A DNA stretch of 64,000 bases, from the NCBI GenBank assembly GCA_044223515.1, contig JBGALV010000003.1:37821-101820 (forward strand). Direction: 5' to 3'. This document shows positions 34,242-62,901 of the stretch, piece after piece. The DNA comes from Alphaproteobacteria bacterium. GTDB lineage: Bacteria; Pseudomonadota; Alphaproteobacteria; SHVZ01. Each line of letters begins with the position of its first letter. Position 1 is the first letter of the stretch. The notes beneath the pieces were generated by a model. That model was not told the origin of the DNA. It was given only the letters and a program-made list of their open reading frames with translations, and ran no database searches. A program made the position numbers and the translations under genes.

Positions 34242-34375
34242 GATCGGCTATATCGCGTCCGGGAGCGGCCTTGACAGCGCAGGCGATTGAATGTCCAAGA
34301 CGTTCCGCGCAAGGACATTCGAGCCGCCGGCCCCGTTCGGGGCGTTCCGGCCCTATCGCCCAAGGAGCAGCCGTC

Positions 34376-34708: not shown

Positions 34709-34780
34709 TCCAAAGACGCGCCGCGTCCCGTAGCGGCGGAGACGGCCCCAGCCTGTCCTGAGGCCAGACGCCCGGTCACC

Positions 34781-37970: not shown

Positions 37971-38042
37971 GGGGTCCTTCTTACCCGATACGGGCATTTC
38001 CGTCATTTGGGGATGGGCGCAGGCCAGGGCCAGGGGTGAATG

Positions 38043-40498: not shown

Positions 40499-40508
40499 GA
40501 TCTCGATC

Positions 40509-42200
40509 TCAGCCGGCGGACGGCGACGTCACAAGATAGTCGCCGAGGACGAGGTAGGGGAGGTCGCTCGCACGGAACGCGCGCATGGCGTCCGCGGCGG
40601 TGCAGACGATCGGTTCCTCGTGCATGTTGAAGCTCGTGTTGATCACCGAGGCTCGGCCGGTCCGGCGCCGGTAGGCGGTGAGGATCTTGTGGAAGGCCGG
40701 ATAGCTGACCGGATCCACGACCTGCGGGCGCGCCGTGCCGTCGACATGGACCGCGGCCGGCGCTTCGTCCTGCATCACCTTGGTGCAGGCGAAGGTGATC
40801 GCCATGAACTTTGCGGTCTCGCGTGCCTTCTCGAGGCCGATGTAGCGCTCGGCCGCGGCCTCGGCCAGGGTCGCCGGCGCGAACGGCATGAACTCGGAGC
40901 GCTTGAGGCGGCGGTTGAGCCAGTCGTTCACGCCCGGATCGGACCCGTGATAGAGGATGCTGCGATTGCCGAGCGCGCGAGGTCCGTACTCCATAGCCCC
41001 GGCGCAGCGCGCGACGACGTGGCTGGACGCGAGCAGCTCGGCGACCTTGTCCTCCATGTCGGCCGGGCGTGTGTAGGCAAGGCCGCTGCCTTTGAGCTCC
41101 TGCAGCACCTCGTCCTCGGTCGGCGCCGGCCCGAGCAGGGCCGTCTCGAAGCGCTGGGGCGTGGTGCCGACGCGTTGCAGATGGCTGAGCCAGGCGGCCC
41201 CCGCTGCGAGCCCGCCGTCGCCCATGTTGGGGAAGACGTAGACGTCGGAGACGTTCGGCCGTTCGGCAATCCGCTGGTTGAGCTTCACGTTGGCGAAGAC
41301 GCCGCCGGCCACCATGAGGCGATGCGCGCCGGGGCCGAAGTCGTCGATCAGTTCGGCCACGACCTGCTCGAGACTCTGCTGTGTCCCGGCGGCGATGTCC
41401 TCGCGCGGCAGGCGGGCGACCAGGGCCGCCAGCAGCGGGTTCTCCATGCGAGGCACGTAGAGCCCGCGCTCCATGCGGCCGAGGAAGCGGAAGCGGCCGG
41501 GATCGTAATCGATCATCGAGCGCAGCTCGCGGAAGGACTGCGGCTGCTGGCAGTAGGCGGCGAGGCCGAGGACCTTCCCTTCGTGGCGATGCGGAATGAA
41601 GCCGAGCGCCTTGGTGACCGCGCCGTAGAAGTACCCCAGCGAGTCGAAGGTGTTGGAAAAGGCGACGCGCTCCATGCGGGCACCATCGGTCTTCCACACC
41701 GTGCCGGAGCCGTCCTCGCCCCAGCCGTCCAGGGTCACGATCCGGCCGTCCCCGGCGCCGCGTCCGATCAGGGCGGTCGCGGCATGGGATTCGTGGTGGC
41801 CGTGGACGTCGACGGGCCGGCCGAGCGCCCGAACCTCGGCGAGATAGCCGGGCGTCCGCTCGGCCAGGACTCGCCGCTCGTGCCCCTCGCGCTCGGCCAG
41901 CCTCTTGAGCTGGCCCTCCTCCAGGTCGGCGGGAAGGCCTGCCGCGCGGATCGCCCGTTCCTTCTCACGGTAGGGTTCGGACGGAGGTGCCGGCGGCGCC
42001 GCGCCATGGGTCGCCACCACGTCGACCTGGTCTAGGGTGATCCCGGCCATCGACAGGACCTTGGCGACTGCGCCGTGCGGGATGCCGTTCCACTGCTTGA
42101 CGCGGTTGAGCCGCTCCTCGGCGATGGCCGCAACCAGCCGCCCGTCGCGAAGCACCACGGCCGACGCGTCGCTGAGGAAGGAGACGCCGAGGATGATCAT
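40509..42200 (-). CDS. O-carbamoyltransferase (NodU/CmcH family)
   Basis: EERLNR.K, HHESHA, DGWGE, EGKVLGLAAY, GPRALGNRS, NTSFNMHEEP. Confidence 0.92.
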   Translation of the reverse strand: MIILGVSFLSDASAVVLRDGRLVAAIAEERLNRVKQWNGIPHGAVAKVLSMAGITLDQVDVVATHGAAPPAPPSEPYREKERAIRAAGLPADLEEGQLKRLAEREGHERRVLAERTPGYLAEVRALGRPVDVHGHHESHAATALIGRGAGDGRIVTLDGWGEDGSGTVWKTDGARMERVAFSNTFDSLGYFYGAVTKALGFIPHRHEGKVLGLAAYCQQPQSFRELRSMIDYDPGRFRFLGRMERGLYVPRMENPLLAALVARLPREDIAAGTQQSLEQVVAELIDDFGPGAHRLMVAGGVFANVKLNQRIAERPNVSDVYVFPNMGDGGLAAGAAWLSHLQRVGTTPQRFETALLGPAPTEDEVLQELKGSGLAYTRPADMEDKVAELLASSHVVARCAGAMEYGPRALGNRSILYHGSDPGVNDWLNRRLKRSEFMPFAPATLAEAAAERYIGLEKARETAKFMAITFACTKVMQDEAPAAVHVDGTARPQVVDPVSYPAFHKILTAYRRRTGRASVINTSFNMHEEPIVCTAADAMRAFRASDLPYLVLGDYLVTSPSAG

Positions 42201-43072
42201 GCGCGGCCCGCTCCGGTACGAGCCTGCTCAGCCAGCGCCCCGATCACGGCGTCGAAATCGGGCAGCCGCCGGCCGAGGGCGGCCTCGGCCTTGGCGACGT
42301 CGAGACCGGCGCTTTCGGCGCGCGGCACCGCAAGGGATCTGACCGATCCGGTGCGCAAGTGATGGCTCGGAAGGCCCAGTCGGTCGGCAAGAGCGACCAC
42401 GAAACGACGCTTCGACGCGACCTCACGGCAGGCGACATTGAACAACCCAGTGACTCCCCGCTCCATCATCTCGATCACGGCCAGTGCCAGGCTGCCCGAG
42501 TCGATGGTGGAGCAATAATAATCATCGAAGAGCTCGATCGCCGCGCCGGTTCGCAGGATTTCGCATGCCCACTCGACGAAGGTGGGCTGGCCGGCCCATC
42601 CGCGGAAGCCCGTGACGTTGGTCCGGATGGCGAGGCACCGCCGCCAGGTGAGTGCCAACCGCTCGCCAGCGTACTTGCCCACGGCATAGTCGTTTAGCAG
42701 CCGGACCTCGGCAAGCTCGTCATGCGTCGCGGCCCCGTCGCCGGTGAAATAGTGATCCGTGCCGATGGCGACAAGGACGGCGTCGCCGACGCGGCAAAGC
42801 TCTGCCAGGCGCGCGTTGAGACGCGCATTGATCCGGAAGGCCGCACCCGGATCCCTGGCGCAGGCGTCGAGGGAGCCATAGCTGGTGCAGTTGATCACGG
42901 CATCGGGCCGGAGATCCTCGATCGACCGGGCCAGGGCATCGTCGTCGGCCGCATCGATCGCGAGCGCGGCGCCGCGGCGGGCGGTCGCGGTCATCCTGTG
43001 GCCTCGCGCGGTACCCGCCGTCACGAACGCCTGTCCCACCAGACCGGTGGCGCCGAGGACGAGGCAATGCAC
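42197..43072 (-). CDS. RmlD-like NAD(P)-dependent sugar-nucleotide reductase (SDR)
   Basis: GATGLVG, TDHYF, YAVGK (YxxxK) and IRTN. Confidence 0.85.
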   Translation of the reverse strand: MHCLVLGATGLVGQAFVTAGTARGHRMTATARRGAALAIDAADDDALARSIEDLRPDAVINCTSYGSLDACARDPGAAFRINARLNARLAELCRVGDAVLVAIGTDHYFTGDGAATHDELAEVRLLNDYAVGKYAGERLALTWRRCLAIRTNVTGFRGWAGQPTFVEWACEILRTGAAIELFDDYYCSTIDSGSLALAVIEMMERGVTGLFNVACREVASKRRFVVALADRLGLPSHHLRTGSVRSLAVPRAESAGLDVAKAEAALGRRLPDFDAVIGALAEQARTGAGRA

Positions 43073-43076
43073 GACG

Positions 43077-43841
43077 TCAGAAACCCTGGGCGCGATCGCG
43101 CGCCAGCGACTTGATCAGCCCTTCATTGCGGACGATGCCGCCATTGATGCGCCGAAGCTCCGGCGATCGGTCGATGGCTGCGAGCACCTCGGTCAGGCGC
43201 GGCGGGCGGTCGCCGTTCAGGCCGGGTGCGACGGCGCCGAGGAGCGCGAGATCCTCGGGCGTGTCCAAGGTCCATCGTTCGTGGCTGAGGTCGCCTTTAG
43301 GGCAAGAGATGTTGGTGCGGCGAAAGCCGTTCTTCGGGTCGCGGATGTAGAGGGTGACGTGCTCGCGTTCGCTCGGCCGCCTGGCCTCGGATGCGGCTTG
43401 GTCGAGCGCCTTCCGGGTGAAAGCTTCGCAGTCGAGGCCATCGGGATAGGTCGGCGGGTCGTTGTTGCACGCATAGTCGACGTCGCCGGCCGAGACGGCG
43501 GCCACGACCTTCCCGGCTTCGAACGGATCGAGGAACGGGCAGTCGGCCGTGACGCGGACGACCAGGTCGGCGTTGCCGAGCCGGGCGGCGCCGGCGAAGC
43601 GGCCGAGAACATCGTCCTCGTCTCCGCGGAAGATCGGCACGCCGGACCGGGCGCCCCAGGCCGCGACGGCATCATCGTCGGCGCCGGTCGAGGTGGCAAC
43701 GATCGTCGCGTCGACCCCCGGGATGGCACGGGCCGCGTCGGCGACCCATTGGAGCACCGGCTTGCCGCCCAGGTCGGCCAGAACCTTGCCCGGAAGCCGG
43801 GTCGAGCGCATGCGGGCCTGGATGATGGCGACGGTGGTCAT
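43077..43841 (-). CDS. spsF: SpsF-type cytidylyltransferase (probable CMP-nonulosonate synthetase)
   Basis: IIQARM.STRLPGKVL, G.E.DVL.RF, RVTADCP, REHVT, WTLDTPED. Confidence 0.9.
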   Translation of the reverse strand: MTTVAIIQARMRSTRLPGKVLADLGGKPVLQWVADAARAIPGVDATIVATSTGADDDAVAAWGARSGVPIFRGDEDDVLGRFAGAARLGNADLVVRVTADCPFLDPFEAGKVVAAVSAGDVDYACNNDPPTYPDGLDCEAFTRKALDQAASEARRPSEREHVTLYIRDPKNGFRRTNISCPKGDLSHERWTLDTPEDLALLGAVAPGLNGDRPPRLTEVLAAIDRSPELRRINGGIVRNEGLIKSLARDRAQGF

Positions 43842-43893
43842 CGGAACGGGTGAGATTTAGCAGCCCTGTATCGGCGGTGGAAGCAGCCCGCCG

Positions 43894-45051
43894 TCAGGAA
43901 AGGCAGTCGCCGATGACGTCGCGCAGGAGTCCCGCGTAGGTCTCCGGCGAGAAGCGCTCCGCCGCCATCGACTGCAGCGTCGCGACCTCACGGCGAAGCT
44001 CCCCCTCGGGCGCGGCCAGCACGTCGGTCACTGCGATCTCGATCTCCTCCGGAGTGCAGCCGTCCAGGATCCGCCCGCACCCGGGCGGCAGATCGATGCC
44101 GGAGGTCCGGCTCACCACGGGATAGAGGCCGACCCTCAGGCAGTGTGCGACCGAACCCGCCATGCCCTCGGATGCGCTCGGATGCAGAACCGCGACGCTG
44201 CGCCGGAAGACCTCGGCGAGCGCCGGATCATTTCCGTGGAGAAAGCCGTGGTAGCGGATACGGGGATGGCCGCTCAGCTCCGCGTGATAGATGTTGCGGA
44301 AGTCCTCTTCTCCGTCGAGCGAACCGACGACATGCAGCGTCGGCAGATCCCTGGTCGAGAAGAGATCGAGAAGGAGATCGAGCCCCTTCAGCACGGCGCC
44401 GCTCGCCGAGAACCAGACGAACTCCCGCTCCGCCGGCACGAGCATGTCGCCGGATTTGACGAATCCCACATTGGCCGCCGACACGTCGAACAGCCGCATC
44501 TTCGAATGCCAGCGCCGCGGATAGGTGTTGAGCGTGACGGAGTTTCCGACAAGGACGCAATGGTCCGAACGCTCGATGGCCTCGAGCTCGGCATCGACAT
44601 GCTCGCGTTGACGCTTCGGCTCGTAGACGCAGTCCCGTCGCTGCTCGAGCGCGCGGATGCGCTCGAGCTCGCGCGCGTTCTGGACGCGAGGATGGGATCC
44701 CGTCAGCCAGGTGATGCGGACCGCGTTCGGGGCGAGCGCCGCCTCCACCATCAGGAGCTGGAAGTGAAGCGTCAGCGATGCGTGATAAGGGCCGCCGCCC
44801 GCCGGGAGCGGTGCCCCCAGGTCGATCACGTCGACGTCGAAGCCGAGGTCCAGAAAAGCGCGACAGGTCTCCCGCGATTCCCAGAAGATGCTGTGGGCAT
44901 GCATCAGCCGCGCATCGTCGTCCGCCCGGGCCGCGTCGCGGGAGATCGCCACGATGGCCGTTCCGCGGGCCGCACCGCCCTCGATCCGTAGGCTGGTCCG
45001 GTCCGGTCCCTCGAGGATCGAGTAGGCTGTTCCTCGCGACGTCAGTCGCAT
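43894..45051 (-). CDS. GT4-like glycosyltransferase
   Basis: WES, LTGSHP..QN..E, GAVLKGLD, PSASEG; paralog of the 11192-13081 C-terminal half. Start uncertain. Confidence 0.8.
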   Translation of the reverse strand: MRLTSRGTAYSILEGPDRTSLRIEGGAARGTAIVAISRDAARADDDARLMHAHSIFWESRETCRAFLDLGFDVDVIDLGAPLPAGGGPYHASLTLHFQLLMVEAALAPNAVRITWLTGSHPRVQNARELERIRALEQRRDCVYEPKRQREHVDAELEAIERSDHCVLVGNSVTLNTYPRRWHSKMRLFDVSAANVGFVKSGDMLVPAEREFVWFSASGAVLKGLDLLLDLFSTRDLPTLHVVGSLDGEEDFRNIYHAELSGHPRIRYHGFLHGNDPALAEVFRRSVAVLHPSASEGMAGSVAHCLRVGLYPVVSRTSGIDLPPGCGRILDGCTPEEIEIAVTDVLAAPEGELRREVATLQSMAAERFSPETYAGLLRDVIGDCLS

Positions 45052-45152
45052 AGCGGGTCCGAAGGGTTGGGAGGGTCTCCAGTGTGCCAAGCGGCGGCGT
45101 CCCGGAACAAGCATCCAAAGAAAGGGCACCGGAAATGCGATATTATCGCGCC

Positions 45153-51398: not shown

Positions 51399-51776
51399 AT
51401 GCTGAAAGCCTTTTTCGTGATCGCGCTTTTGCTCATCGCCTCGGAAGCAGACTCTCAGTCGCGGCAGCCTCACGTGGTCGGCGAGTGGGCCAGCGACTGT
51501 GCGGCGGATTTCAGGATCGGCTACCGCTTGAATCCGAGCGGCAAGCTGATCGCCTACACGGTCAACAAAGGCGTGGCGGCCGATTTCGGGTCGCCGACCG
51601 TGACGGAGGAGTCAGCTGAGTTCTTCACGCTGGACTTCAACGACGGCGGCGGACCGACCGTCTGGAAGATCGCGGGCACGACCATCCGGCCTTGGCGGCA
51701 GGGACCGGACGGCTCGGTGATAAAGGACGGGATGCGAGACGGCACTCCGACGCCGATCTTCAAACGCTGCCGCTGA
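51399..51776 (+). CDS. Small secreted hypothetical protein
   Basis: RBS GAGGAG, hydrophobic signal peptide, two Cys (near the N- and C-termini). Confidence 0.72.
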   Translation: MLKAFFVIALLLIASEADSQSRQPHVVGEWASDCAADFRIGYRLNPSGKLIAYTVNKGVAADFGSPTVTEESAEFFTLDFNDGGGPTVWKIAGTTIRPWRQGPDGSVIKDGMRDGTPTPIFKRCR

Positions 51777-52106: not shown

Positions 52107-54149
52107 ATGGCAGGTGATTGGAACGGGATATTCCAGGAAGGCCTTGGCCTGCATCAGGCCGGCCGGGTCGCCGAAGCCGAGAAGCGCTACCGTGCGGTGC
52201 TGTCGGCCGTCCCGCTACACTCCTGGGCATGGCATTACGTCGGCCTGATCGAGCTGCAGCGAGGAAGGTCCGACGAGGCACTCCGTTGCCTTCATACTGC
52301 CATTGCGGTCGATCCGTCCGTGGCGGTGTTTCACGGCAATCTGGGGGAAGCCCTGGCGGGCGCGGACCTTAGGGCGGCAGCCCGTCTTTATCGTCGTTCG
52401 GTCTGCTGCGACGGCATGTTCGGATCGGGATACGGCAATCTGGTCGCACGGTGCCGCGCGATCGAGAAGGCCGGCACGCTGCTCCGCTTTTCACGTTGCC
52501 ATTTGGCCGTCGAGCCGAACAACCCGGCTGCCCACTCCAATCTGGGATTGCTCCTTTGCGATCGGGGCGACCTTTCCGATGGTGAGAAAGCTCTGATGCG
52601 AGGGGTGTCGCTCTCGCCCGACGCAGCTAAGATCCTGGCCAACCTCGGTCGGGCCCTGGTGATAGGGGGCCAGGCCGCCAGGGCGGTCATAGTTCTCGAG
52701 AAGGCGGCTCGGCTCAGCCCGGACGCGGCGAGCAACCACAACAATTTGGGCCGTGCCTATCAGCGCGCCGGACGCATCGGTGCCGGACGACGTTCTCTCC
52801 GGCACGCCTTGGCGCTGCAACCCGACGAGGCGGAGGCACTCAACAACCTTGGAAATATCGCTCTCGCCTTGGGAGATGCAGAAGGCGCCAAGGCGTTCGT
52901 TCGACGGGCATTGGCGACTGCGCCGATGAATTCAGCCTTTCGCGGCAACTATGTGATGACGCTGCTTTATACGGACTCGGCGAGCGCGTCCGAGCTGATG
53001 AGCGCGATGTCGAATGGCCGCGCGATCGAGAAACCTCACGTCCCGCTCAGGACGTTCGCGGACGGATCGAGGGTTGGCCTCCGAATTGGGTTTGTGTCGG
53101 CGGACCTCTGCAGTCATCCGGTAGGTGAGACGTTGCTATCGATTTTGGAGGGGATGGATCGTCGGGGTATCGAGGTTTTCCTGTATGCGAATGTCGTGCG
53201 TCCTGACGAGGTGAGTGCGCGGTTTGCCTCTCTGGCGGACGGGTGGCGGGTGATCGCGGATCTGGGCGACGAGGAGGTTGTCTCCGCGGTTCGCCGGGAC
53301 GGGGTGGATGTTCTGGTATCGGTAGCGGGTCACACGGCGGGCGGTCGTCTTCCTGTGTTTGCGTCGAGGGCGGCTCCGGTCCAGGTGTCGCTTTTCGATC
53401 TGACGACGACGGGCCTGGCGGAGATGGACTACTGGGTGGGCGACGAGGCGACGACGCCTGTGGGGACGGGAGAGAGGTTCACCGAGACGATCTTGCGGCT
53501 GCCGTGCTGGTGCGTGTTCCGCCGTCCGCCGGAGGAGCCTGCGGTGTCGGCGCTTCCGGCCCTGAGCTCTGGGCGGGTGACGTTCGGGTGCTTCAACAAT
53601 CCGGCGAAGCTGTCGCCGTCGACGCTGTCGACCTGGGCTTCGGTGATGCGGGCCGTTCCGGGGTCGCGGCTTCTCCTCAAGTACCTACATTTCTACGAGG
53701 ACCCGACGCTTCGCGGCCACATCCGGTCGTCGCTCTCGGGGTTCGGGGTGAGCGGGGAGCGGATCGAGTTCGAGGCCGGCTCGACGGAAGGATCGGCGCA
53801 TCTGTCGATCTATCATCGGGTCGACATTGCGTTGGATCCGTTTCCGTTCGTGGGATGCAACGCGACGTTCCAGGCTCTGTGGATGGGGGTTCCGGTGGTT
53901 ACGCTTGCCGGCGAGCGCTTCATCGCGCGGATGGGTGCGGGCTTCCTGCCGCTGGTCGGGCTGGAGCGTCTGGTGGCACCGGACCACCGGGGCTATGTCG
54001 AACGGGCCGAGGCGCTGGCAGGCGACCTCCCCGCGCTCGCGGCCCTCCGTGCCGACCTCAGGAAGCGGGTGATCGGCTCACCCCTCTGCAACGCAAAACT
54101 CTACGCCCATAACCTCCTGCAAGGCTTGCGGAGCGTCGCCGGATGGTGA
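52107..54149 (+). CDS. TPR + GT41 glycosyltransferase
   Basis: Well-formed TPRs; GFVSADLCSHPV, FGCFNNPAKL, ALWMGVPV. Confidence 0.9.
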   Translation: MAGDWNGIFQEGLGLHQAGRVAEAEKRYRAVLSAVPLHSWAWHYVGLIELQRGRSDEALRCLHTAIAVDPSVAVFHGNLGEALAGADLRAAARLYRRSVCCDGMFGSGYGNLVARCRAIEKAGTLLRFSRCHLAVEPNNPAAHSNLGLLLCDRGDLSDGEKALMRGVSLSPDAAKILANLGRALVIGGQAARAVIVLEKAARLSPDAASNHNNLGRAYQRAGRIGAGRRSLRHALALQPDEAEALNNLGNIALALGDAEGAKAFVRRALATAPMNSAFRGNYVMTLLYTDSASASELMSAMSNGRAIEKPHVPLRTFADGSRVGLRIGFVSADLCSHPVGETLLSILEGMDRRGIEVFLYANVVRPDEVSARFASLADGWRVIADLGDEEVVSAVRRDGVDVLVSVAGHTAGGRLPVFASRAAPVQVSLFDLTTTGLAEMDYWVGDEATTPVGTGERFTETILRLPCWCVFRRPPEEPAVSALPALSSGRVTFGCFNNPAKLSPSTLSTWASVMRAVPGSRLLLKYLHFYEDPTLRGHIRSSLSGFGVSGERIEFEAGSTEGSAHLSIYHRVDIALDPFPFVGCNATFQALWMGVPVVTLAGERFIARMGAGFLPLVGLERLVAPDHRGYVERAEALAGDLPALAALRADLRKRVIGSPLCNAKLYAHNLLQGLRSVAGW

Positions 54150-54155
54150 TGTGAG

Positions 54156-55514
54156 CTAGCGGACTCGATCGAGGGCATTGTTCTCGCGGGCGGTGGCGAG
54201 GACTCGAGTCCAGAAGGTCGTTGCGGTGTAGTTCCGCAGGAACCGCGATGTTGCGTTCGCGGCGATCTCCGCGGCGCGCTCGGGATGAGCGAGGAAGTAG
54301 CGGACCTTGTCGACAAGGTCGGCCGCACCCTCGAAAGAGACGTATTCGCGTCCCTCTTCGAAGAAGTCGCAGGTGACGTCGTTGGCGGACTCGAGAAGCA
54401 TCGATCCGCACGCCGCCGCCTCAAGGACCCGACCCTTGAGCTGATGTCCGTCGCCCGTGCTGCAGGCGCTGAAGTTGACCGTCAGCTGAGCGCTTCTGAG
54501 CGAGTCGAGGTAGGTCGCCGTCGAGAGGGTTTTGTGGGCCGGCAAGTTCGGATCCCGATGTCCTTCGACCGCGGACGGGCGCGTGATCACATCGATCCCG
54601 GCCTCTCTCAGCGCCTGCACGCCGGCAACGCGTTCGCCCCAGAGGCTGCCGACCAGGTTGACGCAAGGGCGGCGGGTGGTGAAAGGCGGAACGCTCCCCG
54701 CTGCTATCGGTGACCAGCCGCGAAAGAAACGCCGTCCCAGGTGATGGAGCGGGGGCAGGCTCTCGAGGCTGCAGCCGTCTATCGGCACGACGAGATCGAA
54801 GACATCGGCAATACGATTTGCGACTCCTTGCCAAAGCGCTTTTCGCAGGTCGGGAACGAACAGCACGGTCGGGATCCCCTGGGCCCGCAGATGCCGGAAG
54901 ACGCCGAGTTTCGGATTTTGATGTTGTGCCGTTCCAGGGAGGAAGACCACGATCTCCGGACAGGCATCATTGCATTGGCGCAGCAGCTCCTCGGAAGGAT
55001 CTGAAAGAAGCCCCTGGGTTCGCTTGGGTAGGCGGAACGTACTCCGGCGTCCGACGTGCGCCTGGTCGAAGTGGTCGAGAAACTCCTCGAGATCGCGCCA
55101 GATGAAGAACCAGCGCGTCTCGTCCGACGCGGGCGGGCGGGCGGACGTCTGCAGTGGCAGAGACGGGTCGGTGCGATCGGCGAGCCATCTCCACGCGTCG
55201 GCAAAGGCCCCTAGACTCGCCGCCATCCTGGAGCCCATTCCGAGCAGTTGGCGTGCCCGGGCGAGCGAAGATTCCATGCCCTGGATATCGCCGCGATCCG
55301 GACGCCACAGGGCGAGGTAATAGTGCACCTGAGGGAAACTCGGCTCGAGCGCGCAGGCCTGCCGTAGCAAGGCTCCGGCGGCCGAAGCGGGCCCATCACG
55401 AAGCGCGATCGTCGCCAGTACGCATCGTGCTTCGACCGAGGCGGGCGAGCGTTGCAGGACCGAGCGTGCCAAGGCAGTCGCCTCGGCGCGCCGGCCGGCA
55501 ACATCCAGCTCCAC
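54156..55514 (-). CDS. TPR + CgeB/Glyco_trans_1_2-like glycosyltransferase
   Basis: Short TPR region; QLKGRVLEAAACGSMLL...F..G.EY. Start uncertain but should lie below the terminator at 55597. Confidence 0.75.
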   Translation of the reverse strand: MELDVAGRRAEATALARSVLQRSPASVEARCVLATIALRDGPASAAGALLRQACALEPSFPQVHYYLALWRPDRGDIQGMESSLARARQLLGMGSRMAASLGAFADAWRWLADRTDPSLPLQTSARPPASDETRWFFIWRDLEEFLDHFDQAHVGRRSTFRLPKRTQGLLSDPSEELLRQCNDACPEIVVFLPGTAQHQNPKLGVFRHLRAQGIPTVLFVPDLRKALWQGVANRIADVFDLVVPIDGCSLESLPPLHHLGRRFFRGWSPIAAGSVPPFTTRRPCVNLVGSLWGERVAGVQALREAGIDVITRPSAVEGHRDPNLPAHKTLSTATYLDSLRSAQLTVNFSACSTGDGHQLKGRVLEAAACGSMLLESANDVTCDFFEEGREYVSFEGAADLVDKVRYFLAHPERAAEIAANATSRFLRNYTATTFWTRVLATARENNALDRVR

Positions 55515-55596
55515 GGCTCGTGCGATGTCGGCGTCGATGGCTGAAGTCCTGGTGAAACAAGTCCGGACGGAAGCGTACCTCCGGCCGTAGGGCTGC

Positions 55597-55626
55597 AAAA
55601 GAAAAGGGCCCCTTTCGGGGCCCTTT
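55597..55626 (-). terminator. Rho-independent terminator of the S-layer-like gene
   Basis: Minus strand reads AAAGGGCCCC-GAAA-GGGGCCCTTT-TCTTTT, about 25 nt after the stop. Confidence 0.9.
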
Positions 55627-55650
55627 GAGTTGAAGCGTAGTCTTTGTGGC

Positions 55651-57012
55651 TTAGTCGCTGAAGACCGCGCCCATGTTGGTGACAACGCCCGCCGGGTTGA
55701 GCAGCAGGCCGGTCAGCTTCACGCTGCTCGAACCGAACAGGAAGGTGACCTGAGCGCGGGACGACGCATCACCCAGGAAGGTGCTGCCGACCGCGGTGTT
55801 GATATCCGACGCGCCGTACAGAGCCGAGGAGCCAGCAGCGAGGCTGCTGAGCGACCCGACCGCGGTCGCGCCGTCCGAACGGCGGACGCTGACCAGGGTG
55901 GTCGATGCCGTCGTGCCGCTGTTCACCGCGTAGGCGAACGAGCTGTAGCCGCCCGTCACACCGACGAAGTAGTTCGACGTACGCACCGTGCCGCTGTAAC
56001 CGACGGCGTTGGAGGTCGTCGTGCCGGTGATCGTGCCGTTGTTGCTCGTCGTGATGACGCCGCGGACCGTGATCGAGCTGTTGCTCAGCACGCTCGAGCC
56101 GTTGGCGATCGCGCAGACCTGGAAGGTCGAAACGCTGAGGCCAGTGAGCGTCGCCGAGGTCGAGCCGGGGGTCACGGTGAACGCACCCGACGGGGCCGCA
56201 GTGGCGCAGGTCGTGGCAACAGCAGTGGCGATCGCGTAGACGGTCGAGATGCCCGACAGCGAGCCGCTGACGGTGATCGAGCCGCCCTGAGCGCTCATCG
56301 AGACGGCGCTGCCGCCGCTGACGTCGTTCGGAGCGGTGCCCGCGTTGGCGAACGCGACCGTGCCGAGCGGGGCGAACAGAGCCGTGCCCGTGCCCGAGAC
56401 GAAGCGATTGCCGCCCGAGGCGACGTCGATGGTCTGAGCCGCACCGGCAGCCTGGGTCGCAGTGGCGGCGTCGGTGATGTTCGCGACAACCGTCCCGCCC
56501 GCGGTGGCCTGCTGAGTGACAGGGTCAGCCGAGAGAGTGGCCGTGATGTTGAACGAGGTCGCCGTCGAGTTCGTCGAGATGTAGGTCTGCAGGCCCGAAA
56601 CCTGGATGCCCGTCAGCGAGATATTGGTCGAGCCGGAGCTCGCAGTGGTCACCTGGTAGACAGTCGAGGAAGCGCCCGAGCCGCCCGTCGACAGGGTCAA
56701 CGCGAGGTTGACACCGGCCGAGAATCCGACAGTCGGGTTGGCGGCGAAGGTCATGCCCGAGGGCAGGGCGAAGGTGACGAAGTTACCGGTCGTGAGCGTG
56801 CCGGCCGTCGTGATCAGCCGAACCGTGGTGCCGCTCAGGGTGGCGTTGCCGGTCGAAGTCAGCTGACGAGCGAAGGTATTGTCCGCCGTGACGACAATGC
56901 TCGCGGCGGAAGCAGGCGACATGACACCCAGGAACGACATGGTCGTCATGACGGTTCCCAGACCCGTCGTCGCCAGCAGCAGCCTCTTGCGAGAGCTCTG
57001 AGTCTCAAACAT
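55651..57012 (-). CDS. Ser/Thr/Ala/Gly-rich secreted surface protein, S-layer-like
   Basis: About 36-aa signal peptide ending ASA; mature part about 30% Ser+Thr (hand count of the first 200 aa), no Glu/His/Trp, one Cys pair; strong codon bias; own promoter and terminator. Confidence 0.8.
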   Translation of the reverse strand: MFETQSSRKRLLLATTGLGTVMTTMSFLGVMSPASAASIVVTADNTFARQLTSTGNATLSGTTVRLITTAGTLTTGNFVTFALPSGMTFAANPTVGFSAGVNLALTLSTGGSGASSTVYQVTTASSGSTNISLTGIQVSGLQTYISTNSTATSFNITATLSADPVTQQATAGGTVVANITDAATATQAAGAAQTIDVASGGNRFVSGTGTALFAPLGTVAFANAGTAPNDVSGGSAVSMSAQGGSITVSGSLSGISTVYAIATAVATTCATAAPSGAFTVTPGSTSATLTGLSVSTFQVCAIANGSSVLSNSSITVRGVITTSNNGTITGTTTSNAVGYSGTVRTSNYFVGVTGGYSSFAYAVNSGTTASTTLVSVRRSDGATAVGSLSSLAAGSSALYGASDINTAVGSTFLGDASSRAQVTFLFGSSSVKLTGLLLNPAGVVTNMGAVFSD

Positions 57013-57076
57013 TTTTTTCCAGCTCCAGTTACGTTGACGACATGCCGTTTCCGGGTCCAAGGCCCGCGGCTCAGGG

Positions 57077-57106
57077 TTTATACGGCTGGCTTTTGGCCGT
57101 TGTCAA
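57077..57106 (-). promoter_or_regulatory. Near-consensus sigma70 promoter for the S-layer-like gene
   Basis: Minus strand TTGACA (57106-57101), 18-nt spacer, TATAAA (57082-57077). Confidence 0.75.
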
Positions 57107-57401
57107 CGGGGCGGAACCAGCATTTTCGCGGGTTTAGCAGGGGGCGGACGTTTGATCTGGGGGGGCGATGCGAGGGTAAGGAATAACTTCCGGCGGCGGG
57201 AATGCCGGCTCTGTTTCGTCCCGTCTTTGCCCGCATTTTCCGTTTAGTCGCGCCAGAATCCCGTTGGTTACGGCCGGGAGTTGCGAGCATCGCGAACAAG
57301 ACCGGTTAATCATCTTGTTTCGGCAAGATAAAGCATTGTCGGGGTAATCTTTCACTCTGGAAGAGTGTGCCCCCCGCCGTTTTCGTCGTCTTCGTGAAAA
57401 A

Positions 57402-59189
57402 TCAGGTGGGGTGTGTGCGGCAGGCAACAGGCCGTTCCGCGGGTCGCGACTCCAGGATTTCCGCGGGTGCGGCGGAGACGTCCTTAAGAACAGACGCCCA
57501 ATCCCCGGGACTCGGTTGGCGGAGCAGCCGGTGGGTAGGGTACCAGGGAGAGTCGATGCGTCCGAGAAGCCAGCGGAAGTCCGGAATATGGTTGAGGAGG
57601 ACGAGGCCCGGGCGCCCAAGTCCGCCTGCCAAGTGAAGGGCTGACGTATCCACGCCGACCACGACGGAGATATCTTCGAAGACTCGCGCGGTATCCAGGA
57701 AGTCCTTGTTGCCGACAAGACAGGGAATAAGGTCGTCGAGCTCGCCTGCCCGCGGCCCGAATTGGAGACTGACGACCTCGCCGATACCCGCGTCCATCAG
57801 CTGATGCACCAGGGTCCGGGCGTTCTCAGGCGAGATGGACCGGGCCCGGTCGCGCGGATGCACGGCGTTTCCGCCCCAGACGACTCCGATCACTGGGCGC
57901 TCCGGGCGGTGGAAGGCCGGCTTGCTTGTCGGCAGGTAGGGCACGTCTCGCGGAATTGTCGCGAGCGTTGTCTGGAAGATGCGAGGCAGCGACATCAGCG
58001 GCGCGTGCCGGTCGAATGCCGGCAGGACGTCGCCTTGGACGCAGACCTCCTCGATGGAGGGCATGAGCGCCAGCAGGCGGCGGAGCGGCCGCTGGCACTC
58101 GAGGATCACGCGCGCTCCGCGCGCGGCCACCAGCGGCGCGTAGCGGATGAACTGCAGCGTGTCGCCGAGGCCCTGCTCCGCATGAAGAAGGATGCGCCGA
58201 CCGGCCAGATCCTCGCCGGCCCATTCCGGAACCGGCCACTTGCGGGGCGGCGTTGGAAACCGGCGCATGCGCCAGCGTGCTTCGTAGCCGCGCCAGCCTT
58301 CGGAGAAGTTCCCCTCGAGAAGCTGGGCGAGCGCGAGGTTCCAGCGGGCCTCGGCATAGCCGGGCTTCAGGCTGAGCGCGCGTTGGAGATGAATCTTGGC
58401 TACGGAGAGCCGGAGGCGGTCGAAATCGGCAAGGCCGAGGTTGTAGTGCGCTTCGGCGAAGTCCGGTCGCCGCGTCACGGCTTTCCGGAGCCGGGAGGCG
58501 GCCGCATCGGGGCGGTCGTCGGCAAGATCGGCGGCCCCCAAAGCATTGATGACGTCTGGCGAAGCCGTCGACAGGGCTCCCGCCCGCAGCGCGTGGCGGC
58601 GTGCCGCCGCGCCATCGCCGCGGCTCAGCTCGACGAGCGCCAGGTTGAGAGTTGCTTCCGGGAGAACGGGGTCCGCCGCAATCGATTGACGAAAGAAGCG
58701 TCCGGCCATATCGACGCCGTCGAGCTCGACCGCGGCACGACCGAGATCGTTCAGCGTCGCGCTCTCACCGGGCCGCAGGGCATTCGCGGCGGCGAAGACG
58801 GCAAAGGCACCGGCGGCGTCGCCCGCGCTCATGAGGACCCCGCCGAGATTGCGCAGCCAGAGGGGGTCGGGACCGCTGATCGACAGAGCGCGCCGGTAGC
58901 TACCGATGCTTTCCGGCCGAAGACCGCGCGCGGCGAAGGCATTTGCGCGGTGGCCATGGGCGCTGGCGAGCGCTGGTTCGTGGATTAGGGCCTGGCGAAA
59001 CTCGGCCTCTGCCTCATCCGCACGCGACTGATCGGTGAGCACGACGCCGAGAAGATCTCGCGCCGGCGCACCGGCGCCAGAGGCGATCGCCTGCCGATAC
59101 GCGTCGGCCGCCTCGGAAACGCGGCCTTGCCGGTGATGTTCCAGCCCGGCGTCGATCAGCGCCTTGATCGCATGAAGCGCCTGCGTCAT
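57402..59189 (-). CDS. TPR + GT9-like glycosyltransferase
   Basis: EQGLGDTLQFIRY, DTSALHLAGGLG, DFRW...PWYP; ATGA-coupled start. Confidence 0.9.
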   Translation of the reverse strand: MTQALHAIKALIDAGLEHHRQGRVSEAADAYRQAIASGAGAPARDLLGVVLTDQSRADEAEAEFRQALIHEPALASAHGHRANAFAARGLRPESIGSYRRALSISGPDPLWLRNLGGVLMSAGDAAGAFAVFAAANALRPGESATLNDLGRAAVELDGVDMAGRFFRQSIAADPVLPEATLNLALVELSRGDGAAARRHALRAGALSTASPDVINALGAADLADDRPDAAASRLRKAVTRRPDFAEAHYNLGLADFDRLRLSVAKIHLQRALSLKPGYAEARWNLALAQLLEGNFSEGWRGYEARWRMRRFPTPPRKWPVPEWAGEDLAGRRILLHAEQGLGDTLQFIRYAPLVAARGARVILECQRPLRRLLALMPSIEEVCVQGDVLPAFDRHAPLMSLPRIFQTTLATIPRDVPYLPTSKPAFHRPERPVIGVVWGGNAVHPRDRARSISPENARTLVHQLMDAGIGEVVSLQFGPRAGELDDLIPCLVGNKDFLDTARVFEDISVVVGVDTSALHLAGGLGRPGLVLLNHIPDFRWLLGRIDSPWYPTHRLLRQPSPGDWASVLKDVSAAPAEILESRPAERPVACRTHPT

Positions 59190-60955
59190 CGCCGGGATTC
59201 CGGTGCGCAAGCGGCGAGAATGGCGTCCTCCGCCGCACGTATCGGATCTGCGTCGCCGAACAGCCGGTCGAGCCTGCCGACGATCCGGTGTGCTTCGGCC
59301 CGGCGAAAGGGAGCGTCTACCCCGAGGCGAGCCGCGCGCTGGACATAGTCGTCGCGGTTCGATGCGGCCATGTCGTCGAGGCCCATCTTCGTCAGCGCCG
59401 CGAAGGTGTGCCGGCTTCGCATGCTGTCCCCCGGCAGGGTGACGACGGGCACGCCGTTTCCGATCACCTCGATCGTCGAGTTGAAGCCCGACCAGCCGAT
59501 CGAGTCGAGGAGCACGTCGGCATGCCTCGCGATACCCAGAAAGCCGGCCTCGGTCAGCGTCGGCAGCATGAGAATGCGCGAGGCAGGATCGTGGCCTGCG
59601 GCAGCGAATGCCCGTGACAGCCGATCGACGAAGGCTCGCGTGATTGCCGGCATCGGGCCGGAGAAGAAGACGAACCGGCCGCGAGGCACGGCGTCCGCAA
59701 TGCGGACCAACAGCACGTCATCCTGAGGCAGGTACTTATAAAGAGACTGGGCGCAGAGGTAGACGACGTCATCGGCGCCGATGCCGGCGTCCTGCCGTGA
59801 GAGGGGCGCTGGCGAAACCGTACTTGGCGTGTAGAGACATCCAAGGCCGGAAAGCCGTACGAGCCGCTCGACGTAGCGTGCGTCGCCGTCTTCCGGCTCC
59901 ATCAGGTCGCTCGAGAAGAACAGGTCCATGGTCGGATATCCCGACGTGGTCGGGTGACCCCAGGACATCGCCTGCACCGGCGCCAGCTTGAGTGCCGCGA
60001 GCCAGGCGGCGACGGGATCCATGCCGATCTCGGGATAGTAGAGAAAGTCTATCCGGTCGCTTCGGATGCGTTGCGCCAGCGCCATACGGTCGAGCGGCCC
60101 GGCAACGAACCGGTCGAGGCGCGCGGCGGCCGAGGTCGTGATGTCATCGGTGACCGGGCTCGTGTGGTAGCCGAAGACTTCGAAGCGGGATCGATCGAGC
60201 GCTTCGACCCAACCGGCCAACGCCATTTTCCATACGGAGTGACGCCGGAAGTAGCCGGAGGCCAAGCCGATACGCAGGCGCTCCTTGGGATCCCTTTCGC
60301 GTCTCGTCGGGGGGCGAGCCAGATCAGGATGACGTGCCGCCAAGGCTCGGCACAACAACCGCCCATAGCGCGCCTGGAGCTGGCGATCGTCACGCGCCTG
60401 ATAGGCGAGGAAGAAAGGCTGAACCGAGCCGACCGCGTCGGCGAATCGCGCGAGATCCTCGGCGTTCGCGACCTCGGACCATGCCTCGAGCGCGGCGAGG
60501 GCTTTCGAGTAGGCCTCCCTTGCCCGCTCGATCTCCGCTTCGGTTTCGTAGAGGACGGGCAGCTCGGAGACGCAGGCCCCCAGTCGCGCGCGCCCATCCG
60601 ACGGGTTCGTCGCCAAGGCGCGCGCATAGCGCAGGCGCGCCTCGTCCGTCTGGCCGCGTATCCAGGCGGTGTTGGCGAGGCTTTCGCTCGCGGGCGCCAC
60701 GGCGCCTCCTAAAGCAAGAGCGCATCGCAGCCATCGTTCCGCCTCGTCGCTCCGGGACAGGCGTTTCAGGGCGTTCGCGAGATTGACGCGCGCGATCGCG
60801 TCGGACGGCGCAAGGGCAATCTGCCGCGCGAATGAAACGGCGGCTCGCTCGGCGTGCGCGGCGCGGATGGAAGCCGCGCCGAGATCGTGCCAAGCCGAGG
60901 CATCGCTCGGGGTCGAAACGAGAGCACAGCGCGGACGGAGGTCGAAAGCCGTCAT
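59186..60955 (-). CDS. TPR + GT41 glycosyltransferase, distinct subtype
   Basis: SGYFRRHSV, YPEIGMDP, SWGHPTTSG, AQSLYKY, WSGFNST; ATGA-coupled start at 60955. Confidence 0.88.
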   Translation of the reverse strand: MTAFDLRPRCALVSTPSDASAWHDLGAASIRAAHAERAAVSFARQIALAPSDAIARVNLANALKRLSRSDEAERWLRCALALGGAVAPASESLANTAWIRGQTDEARLRYARALATNPSDGRARLGACVSELPVLYETEAEIERAREAYSKALAALEAWSEVANAEDLARFADAVGSVQPFFLAYQARDDRQLQARYGRLLCRALAARHPDLARPPTRRERDPKERLRIGLASGYFRRHSVWKMALAGWVEALDRSRFEVFGYHTSPVTDDITTSAAARLDRFVAGPLDRMALAQRIRSDRIDFLYYPEIGMDPVAAWLAALKLAPVQAMSWGHPTTSGYPTMDLFFSSDLMEPEDGDARYVERLVRLSGLGCLYTPSTVSPAPLSRQDAGIGADDVVYLCAQSLYKYLPQDDVLLVRIADAVPRGRFVFFSGPMPAITRAFVDRLSRAFAAAGHDPASRILMLPTLTEAGFLGIARHADVLLDSIGWSGFNSTIEVIGNGVPVVTLPGDSMRSRHTFAALTKMGLDDMAASNRDDYVQRAARLGVDAPFRRAEAHRIVGRLDRLFGDADPIRAAEDAILAACAPESRR

Positions 60956-62901
60956 GCGTGCGCGAAGGCGCGATGCGCTTCCTCGAAGACGGCTTCTAGC
61001 TCGCGTGCGAGCGGCCGCCCATCCGTCAGGCGGGACGCGGTCAAACGCTGGCGAAGCTCTTGCCGGAGTGCACGGCGCCGTTCGTCGGCAGCCACGAGGA
61101 CGCGCCCATTTTCGAGAAAGCCGGCGTCGTCCTCGGCAACGAGATCGGGGAGACCTGCGGCGGAAAGTATCGACGCACCCATCCGCCCCATCATGCGTCC
61201 GGCCGTCCGGCTCAGGACGGGCACGCCCATCCATAGAGCTTCGAAAGTGGTTGTGCAGCCGTTGAAGGGGACCGGGTCGAGAGCGATGTCGATGTCGCGA
61301 TAGGTATCGAGGTGGGTCTCGCGGCTGTCGACCCGCGTCGAGAAGTCGAGAGCGTCGGCTCTTACGCCGTGTGCGGCGAATTCCCGGCGGATACGGTCCT
61401 GGATGCTCCGGTCGTCGTAAAGATTCTTGTACTTCAAGAGCAGCCGCGCGTCCGGAAAGGCGCGCAGCAGCGGTGCCCAGAGAGCGATCGTAGCGGGCCC
61501 GATCTTGGCCGGGTTGCTGAACGATCCGAACACGATGCGATCGCCGTTCTGGCGCCGGACGTTCGAGAGCTGGCCTTCAGGCATCGTGAAGCAGAAGAGG
61601 CAGGAGACAGCCAGAGGCGGCTCGGAAAGGGCTCCTCGATCCGAGGGCGGGCACAGGAGCGGATCGACGACGATCCCGTCGATCTCGGGCGATCCGCTGC
61701 TCGCGACGTCGAGCAGGGAGAGCTGTACGGGGGCCGGGCGGAACGAGGCGACGCCGAGGCGGTTTCGCGCGGTGTTCCCGGCGAGGATGACCAGCACGTC
61801 GATTCCGTCCGCGCGGATCCGCTGGGCGATCGTCTCATCGTCGTCGCCGGTGACTTCCACCCAGCGATCGGCGGTGCTCGCGAGCCGACCCGTCATATCG
61901 TCGCGTCGGCCGATGTCGGCGTAGCACGTGATCTGGAACTTGCCCCGATCGTGAGCCTCGATCGCGGGCGCGATGTTGTAGGCGACAGGATGCTTCCAGA
62001 AATCGGCCGAAACATAGGCGAGGCGAATCCTGTCCGCACATCCGGAGGACCTCGGTCGCGGGTGGACCGGTCGTTGCTCGGCCTGCCGACGGGCCCGCGC
62101 GTAGCCGAGTTCCTGCGCCGGAGTCGTCCGGTGATCGTAGAGCGAGATCATCAGGCGCGCGCTCCATGAGGCAGGCCTCCGCGGTTCGATGGTCGTCGCG
62201 CGTGCGACGATCACGCTCGCTGCCAGAGGATCGCCCGCGGACGAGGCGATCCTGGCCAAGCGCAACCACAGGCCCGCATCGCCTGGACCGAGAGCGGCAG
62301 CACAATGCAGTTGGTGCCAGGCTCCGCTCGTCTCGCCGAGATCAGCGAGAATCCCGGCCAGGGTGAAGCGAAGGTCGATCGACAGCGGGTTCGCCCGCAC
62401 GGCGGCCTCGAGCAGGCGCGCCGCTTCGCCGGCATGGTCGGCCTCGCCGAGTGCCAGCGCGAGATTGAGGATGGCGCCGCCATCGCCAGGCTGCAGCGCC
62501 AGGGCTCGCCGTCCGTGGCGAACCCGTCGCCCGGCGGTGAAGATCGGCATCGCCGACACGTTCGCGTGGAACGGGAAGACGTCCGGCGCGAGGGCTAGGG
62601 CGCGTCTCATCGCGCGGCGCGCGAGCGGACCGTCGCTGAGGATGGCGAGATTTGCGTGGAGCGCCGCCGCGACTGGGACGATCGCGATCGCGCGCCCGAT
62701 ATGGGTTCTGGCGAGATCCCGCCGGCCTCTCTGCAGTGCGTCCTGGGCGAGCGCCACATGCAGCTCGGCATCCGCGGGCCCGCTCGCCAGGCGGCCAGAA
62801 ATTTCACTCCCGACGGGGCGAGCGCGCGCATCCTCGGGCATGCGGATGGAGGAGGCTGCCACCGATTCAGTTTCGGGCATGGTCATTGCCATAGCCCCCA
62901 A
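60952..62901 (-). CDS. TPR + GT41 glycosyltransferase
   Basis: AYVSADFWKHPV, FGSFSNPAKI, FNGCTTTFEALWMGVPV; start may be 62892 or 62886. Confidence 0.88.
   Translation of the reverse strand: MGAMAMTMPETESVAASSIRMPEDARARPVGSEISGRLASGPADAELHVALAQDALQRGRRDLARTHIGRAIAIVPVAAALHANLAILSDGPLARRAMRRALALAPDVFPFHANVSAMPIFTAGRRVRHGRRALALQPGDGGAILNLALALGEADHAGEAARLLEAAVRANPLSIDLRFTLAGILADLGETSGAWHQLHCAAALGPGDAGLWLRLARIASSAGDPLAASVIVARATTIEPRRPASWSARLMISLYDHRTTPAQELGYARARRQAEQRPVHPRPRSSGCADRIRLAYVSADFWKHPVAYNIAPAIEAHDRGKFQITCYADIGRRDDMTGRLASTADRWVEVTGDDDETIAQRIRADGIDVLVILAGNTARNRLGVASFRPAPVQLSLLDVASSGSPEIDGIVVDPLLCPPSDRGALSEPPLAVSCLFCFTMPEGQLSNVRRQNGDRIVFGSFSNPAKIGPATIALWAPLLRAFPDARLLLKYKNLYDDRSIQDRIRREFAAHGVRADALDFSTRVDSRETHLDTYRDIDIALDPVPFNGCTTTFEALWMGVPVLSRTAGRMMGRMGASILSAAGLPDLVAEDDAGFLENGRVLVAADERRRALRQELRQRLTASRLTDGRPLARELEAVFEEAHRAFAHA

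Follow-up and report, generated by a model that had tools for sequence, protein, structure and literature searches.

The stretch analyzed here (the window, 64,000 nucleotides) comes from an uncultured wastewater alphaproteobacterium and lies on contig C175 (109,866 bp) of assembly G000. On its minus strand the window contains a gene, referred to below as the coat gene, for a secreted protein with an N-terminal signal peptide and a mature part very rich in serine and threonine, bounded by its own promoter and terminator. On both sides are genes for glycosyltransferases that carry tetratricopeptide repeat (TPR) modules, and the same window holds a second gene for the Sec ATPase, SecA (Table 1). 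The product of the coat gene is most likely the structural subunit of an S-layer or of a closely similar self-assembling surface coat. The reading defended below, to which we give a probability of about 0.65, is that it is a predicted S-layer-type protein, similar to Slr4, that is exported by the Sec and type II secretion systems.

The gene stands alone as a unit, with a promoter and a terminator of its own, both of them conserved. Translation begins at the ATG at position 57012, which has a GGAG sequence upstream of it (57026–57023), and all 15 subfamily homologs with a complete N terminus align from this ATG. The promoter, TTGACA-N18-TATAAA, had been pointed out in an earlier note on this DNA; the pattern has a single occurrence in the window and did not appear in any of 100 shuffled sequences. 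A stricter sigma-70 scan of positions 54000–59500 called no sites; it misses this promoter because it requires T at the last position of the −10 hexamer, which is A here. A stretch of about 170 nt that begins approximately 40 nt before the −35 box and ends at the ATG is near-identical in the window and at loci L009 and L008, and the sequence farther upstream is divergent among the same three genomes. The predicted 5′ untranslated region (UTR) does not fold more stably than shuffled sequences (z 0.69; 151 of 200 shuffles fold as well). The GAAA-loop terminator described in the same note is also present and has a 10-bp stem with seven G-C pairs followed by a T-run, the whole called at 55626–55603; the hairpin is conserved in four of four loci, one of which holds a homolog that is 48% identical. 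In an Rfam scan there were two sub-threshold matches only, both at this hairpin.

The gene stretch turns up in 14 RNA runs, which come from metatranscriptomes of wastewater, activated sludge, bioreactors, and freshwater. RNA contigs from four runs (four studies) were mapped onto positions 53000–60000, and in all four runs they cover 55635–57061 only, with upstream ends at 57040–57061 and almost bare flanks, the near absence of cover over the flanking genes being no evidence that these are silent. In one run, a single contig of 1426 nt corresponds to 55636–57061. Many database homologs lie on contigs of 1369–1434 nt or 1540 nt, which is approximately the length of the transcript, and the one locus recovered when metagenome contigs were scanned for synteny is a 1540-nt contig without flanks. 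The short homolog contigs and the positions of the promoter and terminator agree with the hint of a single-gene transcript given by the RNA contigs, which weakly support the monocistronic transcript proposed earlier. The strong codon bias proposed with it was overstated. The codon adaptation index (CAI), calculated against 19 ribosomal-operon genes, is 0.617 as compared with a genome mean of 0.576 (sd 0.133), placing the gene at rank 1683 of 3682, and the effective number of codons (Nc) is 32.1 as compared with 35.4 for the genome (sd 4.8; rank 1012 of 3682). Codon adaptation was rejected as a mark of high expression. Within its island, however, the gene is distinct: the mean CAI of the 71 open reading frames (ORFs) on C175 is 0.434, and the coat gene avoids rare codons and, like the ribosomal genes, makes little use of A-ending codons and GGA/GGG.

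The case for an S-layer protein begins with homology. In a language-model search, the top clusters partly carry the Pfam Slr4 annotation (score 0.97). Ten proteins positive for the Pfam Slr4 model, PF19526, were taken from gammaproteobacterial genomes for comparison, and alignment of a profile of 50 family members with these ten by hhalign gave a probability of 95.9% and an E value of 5.3e-9 over 377 columns. The alignment is co-linear and nearly full length (query 23–430 and target 18–433). On this profile comparison, the coat protein is a predicted remote relative of Slr4 over almost its whole length and not a member of the family by the Pfam cut-off: three of the 50 family members match PF19526 weakly (best E 3.8e-4). 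The earlier note had recommended such a search and had seen a loose likeness to VapA/Slr4-type S-layer proteins in the C-terminal region; the likeness to Slr4 held up at the profile level, and the restriction to the C-terminal region did not because the match spans nearly the whole protein. No match was obtained in NCBIfam (E up to 10) or among Protein Data Bank (PDB) sequences with either the single sequence or the 50-sequence profile, or in a six-frame search of the whole G000 assembly with PF19526. The 19 close relatives are all unnamed proteins. A profile search of 1.8 billion representative proteins returned 74 family clusters, most of them of 440–490 residues, and family members are carried by two of 400 other alphaproteobacterial genomes searched. 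The sole match outside the genus among these 400 is in G721, an alphaproteobacterium of another family, which has two tandem coat-family paralogs (L064/L065, G721:C532:49–3002).

The AlphaFold2 model calculated with the 50-sequence alignment (model m7f4f90e531a2) has a predicted local distance difference test score (pLDDT) of 86.6 and a predicted template modeling score (pTM) of 0.78 and comprises three β-sandwich domains. In the VIA structure comparison, domains 1 and 2 match pilin, cohesin, and Ig-like modules at Z scores of 7–8, a generic level. The two cysteines of domain 2, C269 and C300, are near-invariant in the family. Domain 3 matches TM1070 (1nc7_A; Z 12.8, root mean square deviation 2.4, 102 residues aligned) and the Anabaena sensory rhodopsin transducer (ASRT) (2ii7_A; Z 11.1), and the following match has a Z score of 8.7. 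The structure comparison that had been advised assigned domain 3 to the TM1070/ASRT fold and gave only generic matches to Ig-like adhesin and pilin folds for domains 1 and 2, with template modeling scores of at most 0.26. A haloarchaeal S-layer entry, 7ptp, at Foldseek rank 25 with the first model was discarded as not meaningful.

The Anabaena transducer is a tetramer. Complex prediction with four copies of residues 340–453 of the coat protein gave a score of 0.87, as compared with 0.09 for the best of three controls; among solved structures, 20 of 30 pairs and one of 23 single chains scored as high in the calibration. In the four-copy runs, the contact agreement was at least 78%, the pLDDT of the partners was at least 87, and two different faces of one copy were used. 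The predicted four-copy assembly of domain 3 could fit a four-fold node like that in the square lattice of Slr4. Domain 3 has no Pfam model of its own, with only stray weak matches to MTH865, NtrZ, and LTD. This region of ∼110 residues recurs as four tandem copies at the ends of long, otherwise unrelated RCC1- or FN3-repeat proteins (P0049, P0054, P0058, P0062, P0068, P0069, P0071, and P0078).

Genes for secretin, GspF, and GspE form a type II secretion cluster at C175:1021–11177, outside the window; no other secretin was found in the assembly, which is 91% complete. Small unnamed ORFs lie between the type II genes in this interval. At locus L010 in the same genus, the 48%-identical homolog is directly beside genes for GspE, GspF, a pseudopilin, GspK, and secretin, and the GspE and GspF encoded there are 66 and 52% identical to their C175 orthologs. 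Searching 400 Pseudomonadota genomes with the family profile gave two weak relatives, both with a GspE-type ATPase 9–10 kb away. It is likely that the coat gene and the type II cluster were once adjacent and were later separated by a large inserted island.

This arrangement has two precedents. Slr4 of Pseudoalteromonas tunicata is reported to exceed every other protein of its host in abundance and to assemble into a p4 lattice, and it is encoded next to a type II cluster (PMC7821379). NpdA of Delftia and Paracidovorax is described as a signal-bearing S-layer protein that has no Pfam domain and is encoded beside a gsp cluster (PMC10765051), the same linkage that the weak relatives of the coat family show in two other Pseudomonadota genomes. 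The description of the gene as S-layer-like was supported by the profile-level homology to Slr4 together with a type II gene context like those of Slr4 and NpdA. The coat protein and Slr4 share an N-terminal Sec-type signal, a single polypeptide of ∼450–590 residues, linkage to a type II cluster (for the coat gene on the same contig, with adjacency at L010), and profile homology over nearly the full length, and the predicted C-terminal tetramer would fit the Slr4 p4 lattice. They differ in composition, with ∼20% Ser plus Thr and ∼17% charged residues in 10 Slr4 proteins as compared with 32 and 4% in the coat protein, and in setting, Slr4 being marine and gammaproteobacterial whereas the coat protein is alphaproteobacterial and from wastewater. 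Unlike Slr4, the coat protein fails the Pfam Slr4 model and has a 36-residue signal that is unusually conserved, and its gene is separated from the type II cluster by an island with glycosyltransferase, SecA2, and SecB2 genes.

The signal peptide (MFETQSSRKR / LLLATTGLGTVMTTMSFLGVM / SPASA) has a basic start and a long core followed by SPASA. The predicted cleavage site after Ala36 was read from the sequence, and all 50 family members examined have this alanine. The hydrophobic core contains five Thr, three Gly, and one Ser, which agrees with the earlier description of a signal of about 36 residues with a core interrupted by Thr and Gly. The 417-residue mature protein is 32.1% Ser plus Thr and 58.8% Ser, Thr, Ala, and Gly, and its 18 charged residues are nine Asp, eight Arg, and one Lys with no Glu, again as first described (about 30% Ser plus Thr and few charges). 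Mean pairwise identity among 15 sequences is 0.81 in the signal peptide as compared with 0.72 in the mature part, and the signal peptide is identical in five homologs whose mature parts share 77–86%. With respect to two close relatives, there are one and two synonymous differences in the 36 signal codons as compared with 0.06–0.28 per codon elsewhere. A 73%-identical homolog has kept the amino acids of the signal although there are several synonymous changes. The promoter, the 5′ UTR, and the first 36 codons (56905–57250, minus strand) are near-invariant in nucleotides among three genomes, which may reflect constraint on the RNA or a recent recombination event.

The surroundings of the coat gene are dominated by genes for sugar transfer and sugar synthesis. 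C175 has 14 genes for TPR proteins with GT41 domains, 10 of them in the window, as well as several for TPR proteins with GT9-like ends, one for a Glyco_trans_1_2 enzyme, two for Maf proteins, and two for NeuB, together with genes for a cytidylyltransferase, an aminotransferase, a carbamoyltransferase, and a pyruvyl transferase. Both close genomes preserve the arrangement of genes on either side of the coat gene; the coat protein in them is 87–91% identical, above the 65–87% of most neighbors. The TPR protein encoded immediately upstream (57402–59210) is syntenic at L008 and L009, with 68–87% identity, and has no N-terminal hydrophobic stretch. GT41 or Maf domains with TPR modules are encoded beside the coat gene, and these neighbors have no signal-like N termini and so should act in the cytoplasm. 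Because the coat protein is the only large ORF on the 110-kb contig that bears a signal, is rich in Ser and Thr, and has low charge, it is the obvious candidate substrate, and its earlier designation as the best substrate candidate for the island is reasonable. Judged from this gene context, O-glycosylation of the coat protein in the cytoplasm by the flanking enzymes is somewhat favored.

The adhesin HMW1 is modified before it is exported. Cytoplasmic enzymes of the TPR/GT41 type include FlmG, which acts on flagellins in Caulobacter, and HMW1C, which acts on the HMW1 adhesin in Haemophilus (PMC7591256, PMC3983070). The island resembles these systems in its soluble GT41 enzymes with TPR modules and has an exported Ser/Thr-rich candidate substrate and nonulosonic-acid genes nearby. 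It differs from them in that the substrate would be a predicted S-layer protein with a Sec signal and that the transferases are many and paralogous (14 GT41). On another contig of the assembly (C89:35270–50463), at least five flagellin genes lie in between the genes of a GT41 cluster, flagellin being a known kind of substrate for TPR/GT41-type enzymes (PMC7591256; 10.1101/2022.03.25.485807). Another GT41 cluster, with approximately nine genes, is at C148:5133–24083.

Several further features of the island were recorded. A second NeuB with an N-terminal extension (616 residues), a GFO/IDH/MocA oxidoreductase, and two Maf-type glycosyltransferases are encoded at C175:26851–35107 (L041:6851–15107), and at L010 a Maf gene is located 8 kb from the homolog. 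Two small ORFs have signal-like N termini, one for a Sel1-repeat protein of 236 residues (16281–16991, minus strand) and one for an unnamed protein of 125 residues (51399–51773, plus strand). An ORF of 727 residues at 34178–36361 (minus strand), with 31% charged residues and no Pfam match, is probably spurious; the real gene there is at 34781–36616 on the plus strand, and GT41 matches are found on that strand at 35483–36529. A phage-type integrase gene (2510–4342, plus strand) and a plasmid RepA_C gene (32728–33702, minus strand) are inside the island. Together with atypical codon usage (mean CAI 0.434 as compared with 0.576), they suggest a horizontally acquired or plasmid-derived element.

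Two genes for SecA are present in the genome; they gave 445.8 and 358.6 bits, and their products are 52% identical to each other. The paralog encoded in the window, designated SecA2, has kept the C-terminal zinc finger (CPCGSG...CHG). Eight relatives are 60–94% identical to it, followed by a gap to ∼50% for ordinary alphaproteobacterial SecA, and the SecA2 clade is monophyletic with an approximate likelihood ratio (SH-aLRT) support of 99 and a stem of 0.76 in a SecA tree that has no outgroup and in which the row class_G014, a wrongly picked ORF with a branch of about 10, was disregarded. Linkage to type I systems has been described for secondary SecA_DEAD proteins that are truncated (PMC4452313). 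The genome has two SecB genes as well. SecB2 (C175:20804–21265, L041:804–1265, outside the window) matches PF02556 with 97.5 bits and is 32% identical to the housekeeping SecB encoded on C35. SecB2 stands at the head of three TPR-GT9-like genes on the same strand, and SecA2 at the head of a series of TPR and glycosyltransferase genes.

Among 20 relatives, orthologs of SecA2 (81–95% identical) and SecB2 (82–89%) were found only in G001 and G002, which are exactly the genomes with a close coat-protein homolog; in G001, SecB2 and the coat gene are on one contig. A fourth metagenome-assembled genome has a 69% homolog and a 60% SecA2 on one contig of 118,505 bp, 38 accession numbers apart. G004 and G721, whose homologs belong to other subfamilies, have one SecA each. 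SecA2, SecB2, and the coat subfamily co-occur in three of three genomes and in none of the eight other genomes of the genus. The earlier note had drawn a comparison with SecA2/SecY2 systems; the SecA paralog is real, with orthologs in G001 and G002, but only one SecY was found. Dependence of the coat protein on SecA2 and SecB2, argued from co-occurrence among close kin, is a tentative proposal toward which we incline a little less than against; the presence of a second SecB on the same contig strengthens it.

Table 1. Positions of the coat gene, its parts and signals, and selected genes in the window
Feature	Position	Strand	Remarks
Intrinsic terminator, GGGCCCC-GAAA-GGGGCCC + T-run	55597–55626	minus	kept in 4/4 loci
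Coding sequence, 453 residues	55654–57012	minus	stop codon 55651–55653
Domain 3, residues 340–453, TM1070/ASRT-fold β-sandwich	55654–55995	minus	most conserved
Domain 2, residues ∼181–339, Ig/FN3-like β-sandwich	55996–56472	minus	holds C269 and C300
Domain 1, residues ∼37–180, pilin/cohesin-like β-sandwich	56473–56904	minus	least conserved, identity 0.63
Signal-peptide codons 1–36	56905–57012	minus	AxA site (A34, A36)
Predicted 5′ UTR, ∼58 nt	57013–57070	minus	transcription start inferred; near-invariant in 3 genomes
−10 hexamer, TATAAA	57077–57082	minus	18-nt spacer after −35 box
−35 hexamer, TTGACA	57101–57106	minus	kept in 3/3 close genomes
Upstream neighbor, cytoplasmic TPR protein	57402–59210	minus	Pfam TPR only; C-terminal half GT9-like by eye
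Two TPR-GT41 genes	59186–61234 and 60952–62901	minus	ORF calls overlap
Downstream neighbor, Glyco_trans_1_2 glycosyltransferase, weak TPR match	54156–55500	minus	start uncertain
TPR-GT41 glycosyltransferase	52107–54149	plus	PF13844 E 4.5e-39; syntenic and duplicated in L008, L009
NeuB-family nonulosonic-acid synthase	36897–38006	minus	in sugar-supply genes 36897–45129
SecA paralog (SecA2), 886 residues	25786–28446	minus	all SecA domains and C-terminal zinc finger

A number of observations weigh against the proposed identity and route of the coat protein or against its link to the island. The coat protein itself matches no Pfam family at E values up to 1, PF19526 included, and a thin Slr4 profile of three sequences gives an E value of only 0.077. 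Foldseek with both models yields generic Ig-like adhesins only, at template modeling (TM) scores of at most 0.27. The four-copy score of 0.87 may lean on the solved TM1070 and ASRT structures, and it comes from a job with four copies, unlike the calibration set. On C175, 82 kb separate the type II cluster from the coat gene, and this cluster, as the sole secretin system found, may be general rather than dedicated to the coat protein. Codon adaptation of the gene is average for the genome, and the RNA contigs can neither rank expression nor map transcript ends. The Ser/Thr richness and low charge are family-wide, with an average of 27% Ser plus Thr in 43 distant members, and the homolog of the G004 type (L010) is also rich in these residues and has neither GT41 flanks nor SecA2; Ser/Thr richness is therefore on its own no demonstration of glycosylation. 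The assembly has ∼37 GT41 genes (74 half-matches) in many places, and so GT41 neighbors are not rare here. The depletion of synonymous differences in the signal codons indicates that conservation of the signal is partly at the nucleotide level, or due to recent recombination, rather than reflecting recognition by SecA2. The genomes in which SecA2, SecB2, and the coat subfamily occur together are closely related, and a single inheritance event may account for the co-occurrence. No SecY2 was found, and there is one SecY in the 91%-complete assembly, which is compatible only with an accessory Sec system of the SecA2-only type.

Several of these points lead to a more ordinary account, in which a Slr4-like coat is exported through the housekeeping SecA and SecB and the type II system, SecA2 and SecB2 are island cargo that serves other substrates or none, and the glycosyltransferases may act elsewhere. 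The wider family has signal peptides of the usual 20–30 residues, the G004 and G721 relatives manage with one SecA each, and the contig, with its integrase, RepA_C gene, and low mean ORF CAI (0.434), has the marks of a cargo region in a genome where the ∼37 GT41 genes are scattered; conservation at the nucleotide level can account for the invariant signal peptide. Such a separation of the coat protein from the island is harder to reconcile with the joint presence of SecA2, SecB2, and the subfamily in all three genomes and one further metagenome-assembled genome as against none of eight others in the genus, with the position of both Sec paralogs at the head of runs of TPR-GT9-like or TPR and glycosyltransferase genes, and with the 73%-identical homolog, in which the signal residues persist through several synonymous changes. 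A second protein of this kind, large, exported, and rich in Ser and Thr, was not seen on the contig. We regard this account as unlikely, though it is the strongest of the alternatives.

Considerably less likely is a protein that forms no lattice and functions as a secreted adhesin, a biofilm-matrix protein, or a fiber subunit built of Ig-like domains. The resemblance of domains 1 and 2 to pilin, cohesin, and adhesin β-sandwiches, a further point against an S-layer subunit, and the tandem repeats of domain 3 in long RCC1/FN3 surface-type proteins would suit such a role, and Slr4 itself is reported to be a biofilm-matrix component (PMC7821379). On the other side are full-length homology to a family with an experimentally shown S-layer, a uniform size class (most of the 74 clusters at 440–490 residues), type II linkage as for Slr4 and NpdA, and the prediction of domain 3 as a closed four-copy assembly. 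Export of a folded, cytoplasmically glycosylated protein by the twin-arginine translocation (Tat) pathway, with SRKRLLL as a degenerate twin-arginine signal, was also considered, given the 36-residue signal with its Thr/Gly-rich core and basic residues just ahead of that core. Type II systems are able to take Tat substrates. This route was rejected, and is highly improbable, because the twin arginine is lacking in every homolog: the site reads RKR, QKR, or a single R (TRG), and the motif (S/T)-R-R-x-F-L-K is not found. No Tat-signal profile in Pfam or NCBIfam matched at E values up to 10, the near-invariant C269 and C300 suggest that folding and disulfide formation follow export, and the paralogs in the island are of Sec and not of Tat components.

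If the coat protein is a Sec and type II substrate that forms an S-layer, the precursor would cross the inner membrane through SecYEG and be cleaved after Ala36, the type II system would carry the protein over the outer membrane, and tetramers of domain 3 could provide the nodes of a square lattice like that of Slr4. Before export, the flanking TPR-glycosyltransferases (GT41, GT9-like, GT1-like, and Maf) may O-glycosylate some of its 134 Ser and Thr residues with sugars that probably include nonulosonic acids made by the products of the NeuB and cytidylyltransferase genes of the island. SecB2 and SecA2 might then serve as a post-translational targeting pair that is dedicated to a single modified substrate of very high abundance. 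The most extended form of this proposal is a Gram-negative accessory Sec pathway, in which SecB2 and SecA2, acquired with the 100-kb island, would target a cytoplasmically O-glycosylated S-layer precursor by its conserved, weakly hydrophobic signal to the single SecYEG, with type II secretion to follow. As a whole, this is speculative and somewhat improbable.

The parallels for such a pathway are in Gram-positive bacteria. A second SecA is tied to an abundant surface protein in S-layer export in Clostridioides difficile and Bacillus anthracis (PMC7821379), and in streptococci, SecA2/SecY2 export glycosylated serine-rich adhesins and are linked to cytoplasmic glycosyltransferases (10.1101/202358). 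As in those systems, a second SecA is tied genetically to a surface protein and, as in streptococci, to glycosyltransferases. The present case differs in being Gram-negative, in having no SecY2 and a SecB paralog beside SecA2, in a full-length SecA2 with its zinc finger, and in the need for a type II system at the outer membrane. In the papers found by literature search, Gram-negative S-layer proteins leave the cell through type I or type II systems, and SecA2 pathways are described for Gram-positives and mycobacteria (PMC7821379, 10.1101/202358); none of these papers describes a SecA2-SecB2 pair tied to a Gram-negative S-layer.

These results extend the Slr4 family to a rare and compositionally extreme branch, for which there is now a confident fold model. 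One contig brings together a type II system, SecA2, SecB2, two nonulosonic-acid synthases, Maf, and 14 TPR-GT41 proteins around a single Ser/Thr-rich coat protein. If the accessory pathway is real, it would be a functional parallel to the Gram-positive SecA2/Gtf systems assembled from different parts, in which SecB2 replaces the Asp proteins, TPR-GT41 and Maf enzymes replace GtfA/B, and SecY2 is absent. If the link between these components is functional, the organism would offer a tractable case for the passage of a heavily modified protein through SecYEG, for the role of SecB paralogs, and for the choice of sites by glycosyltransferases with TPR modules.

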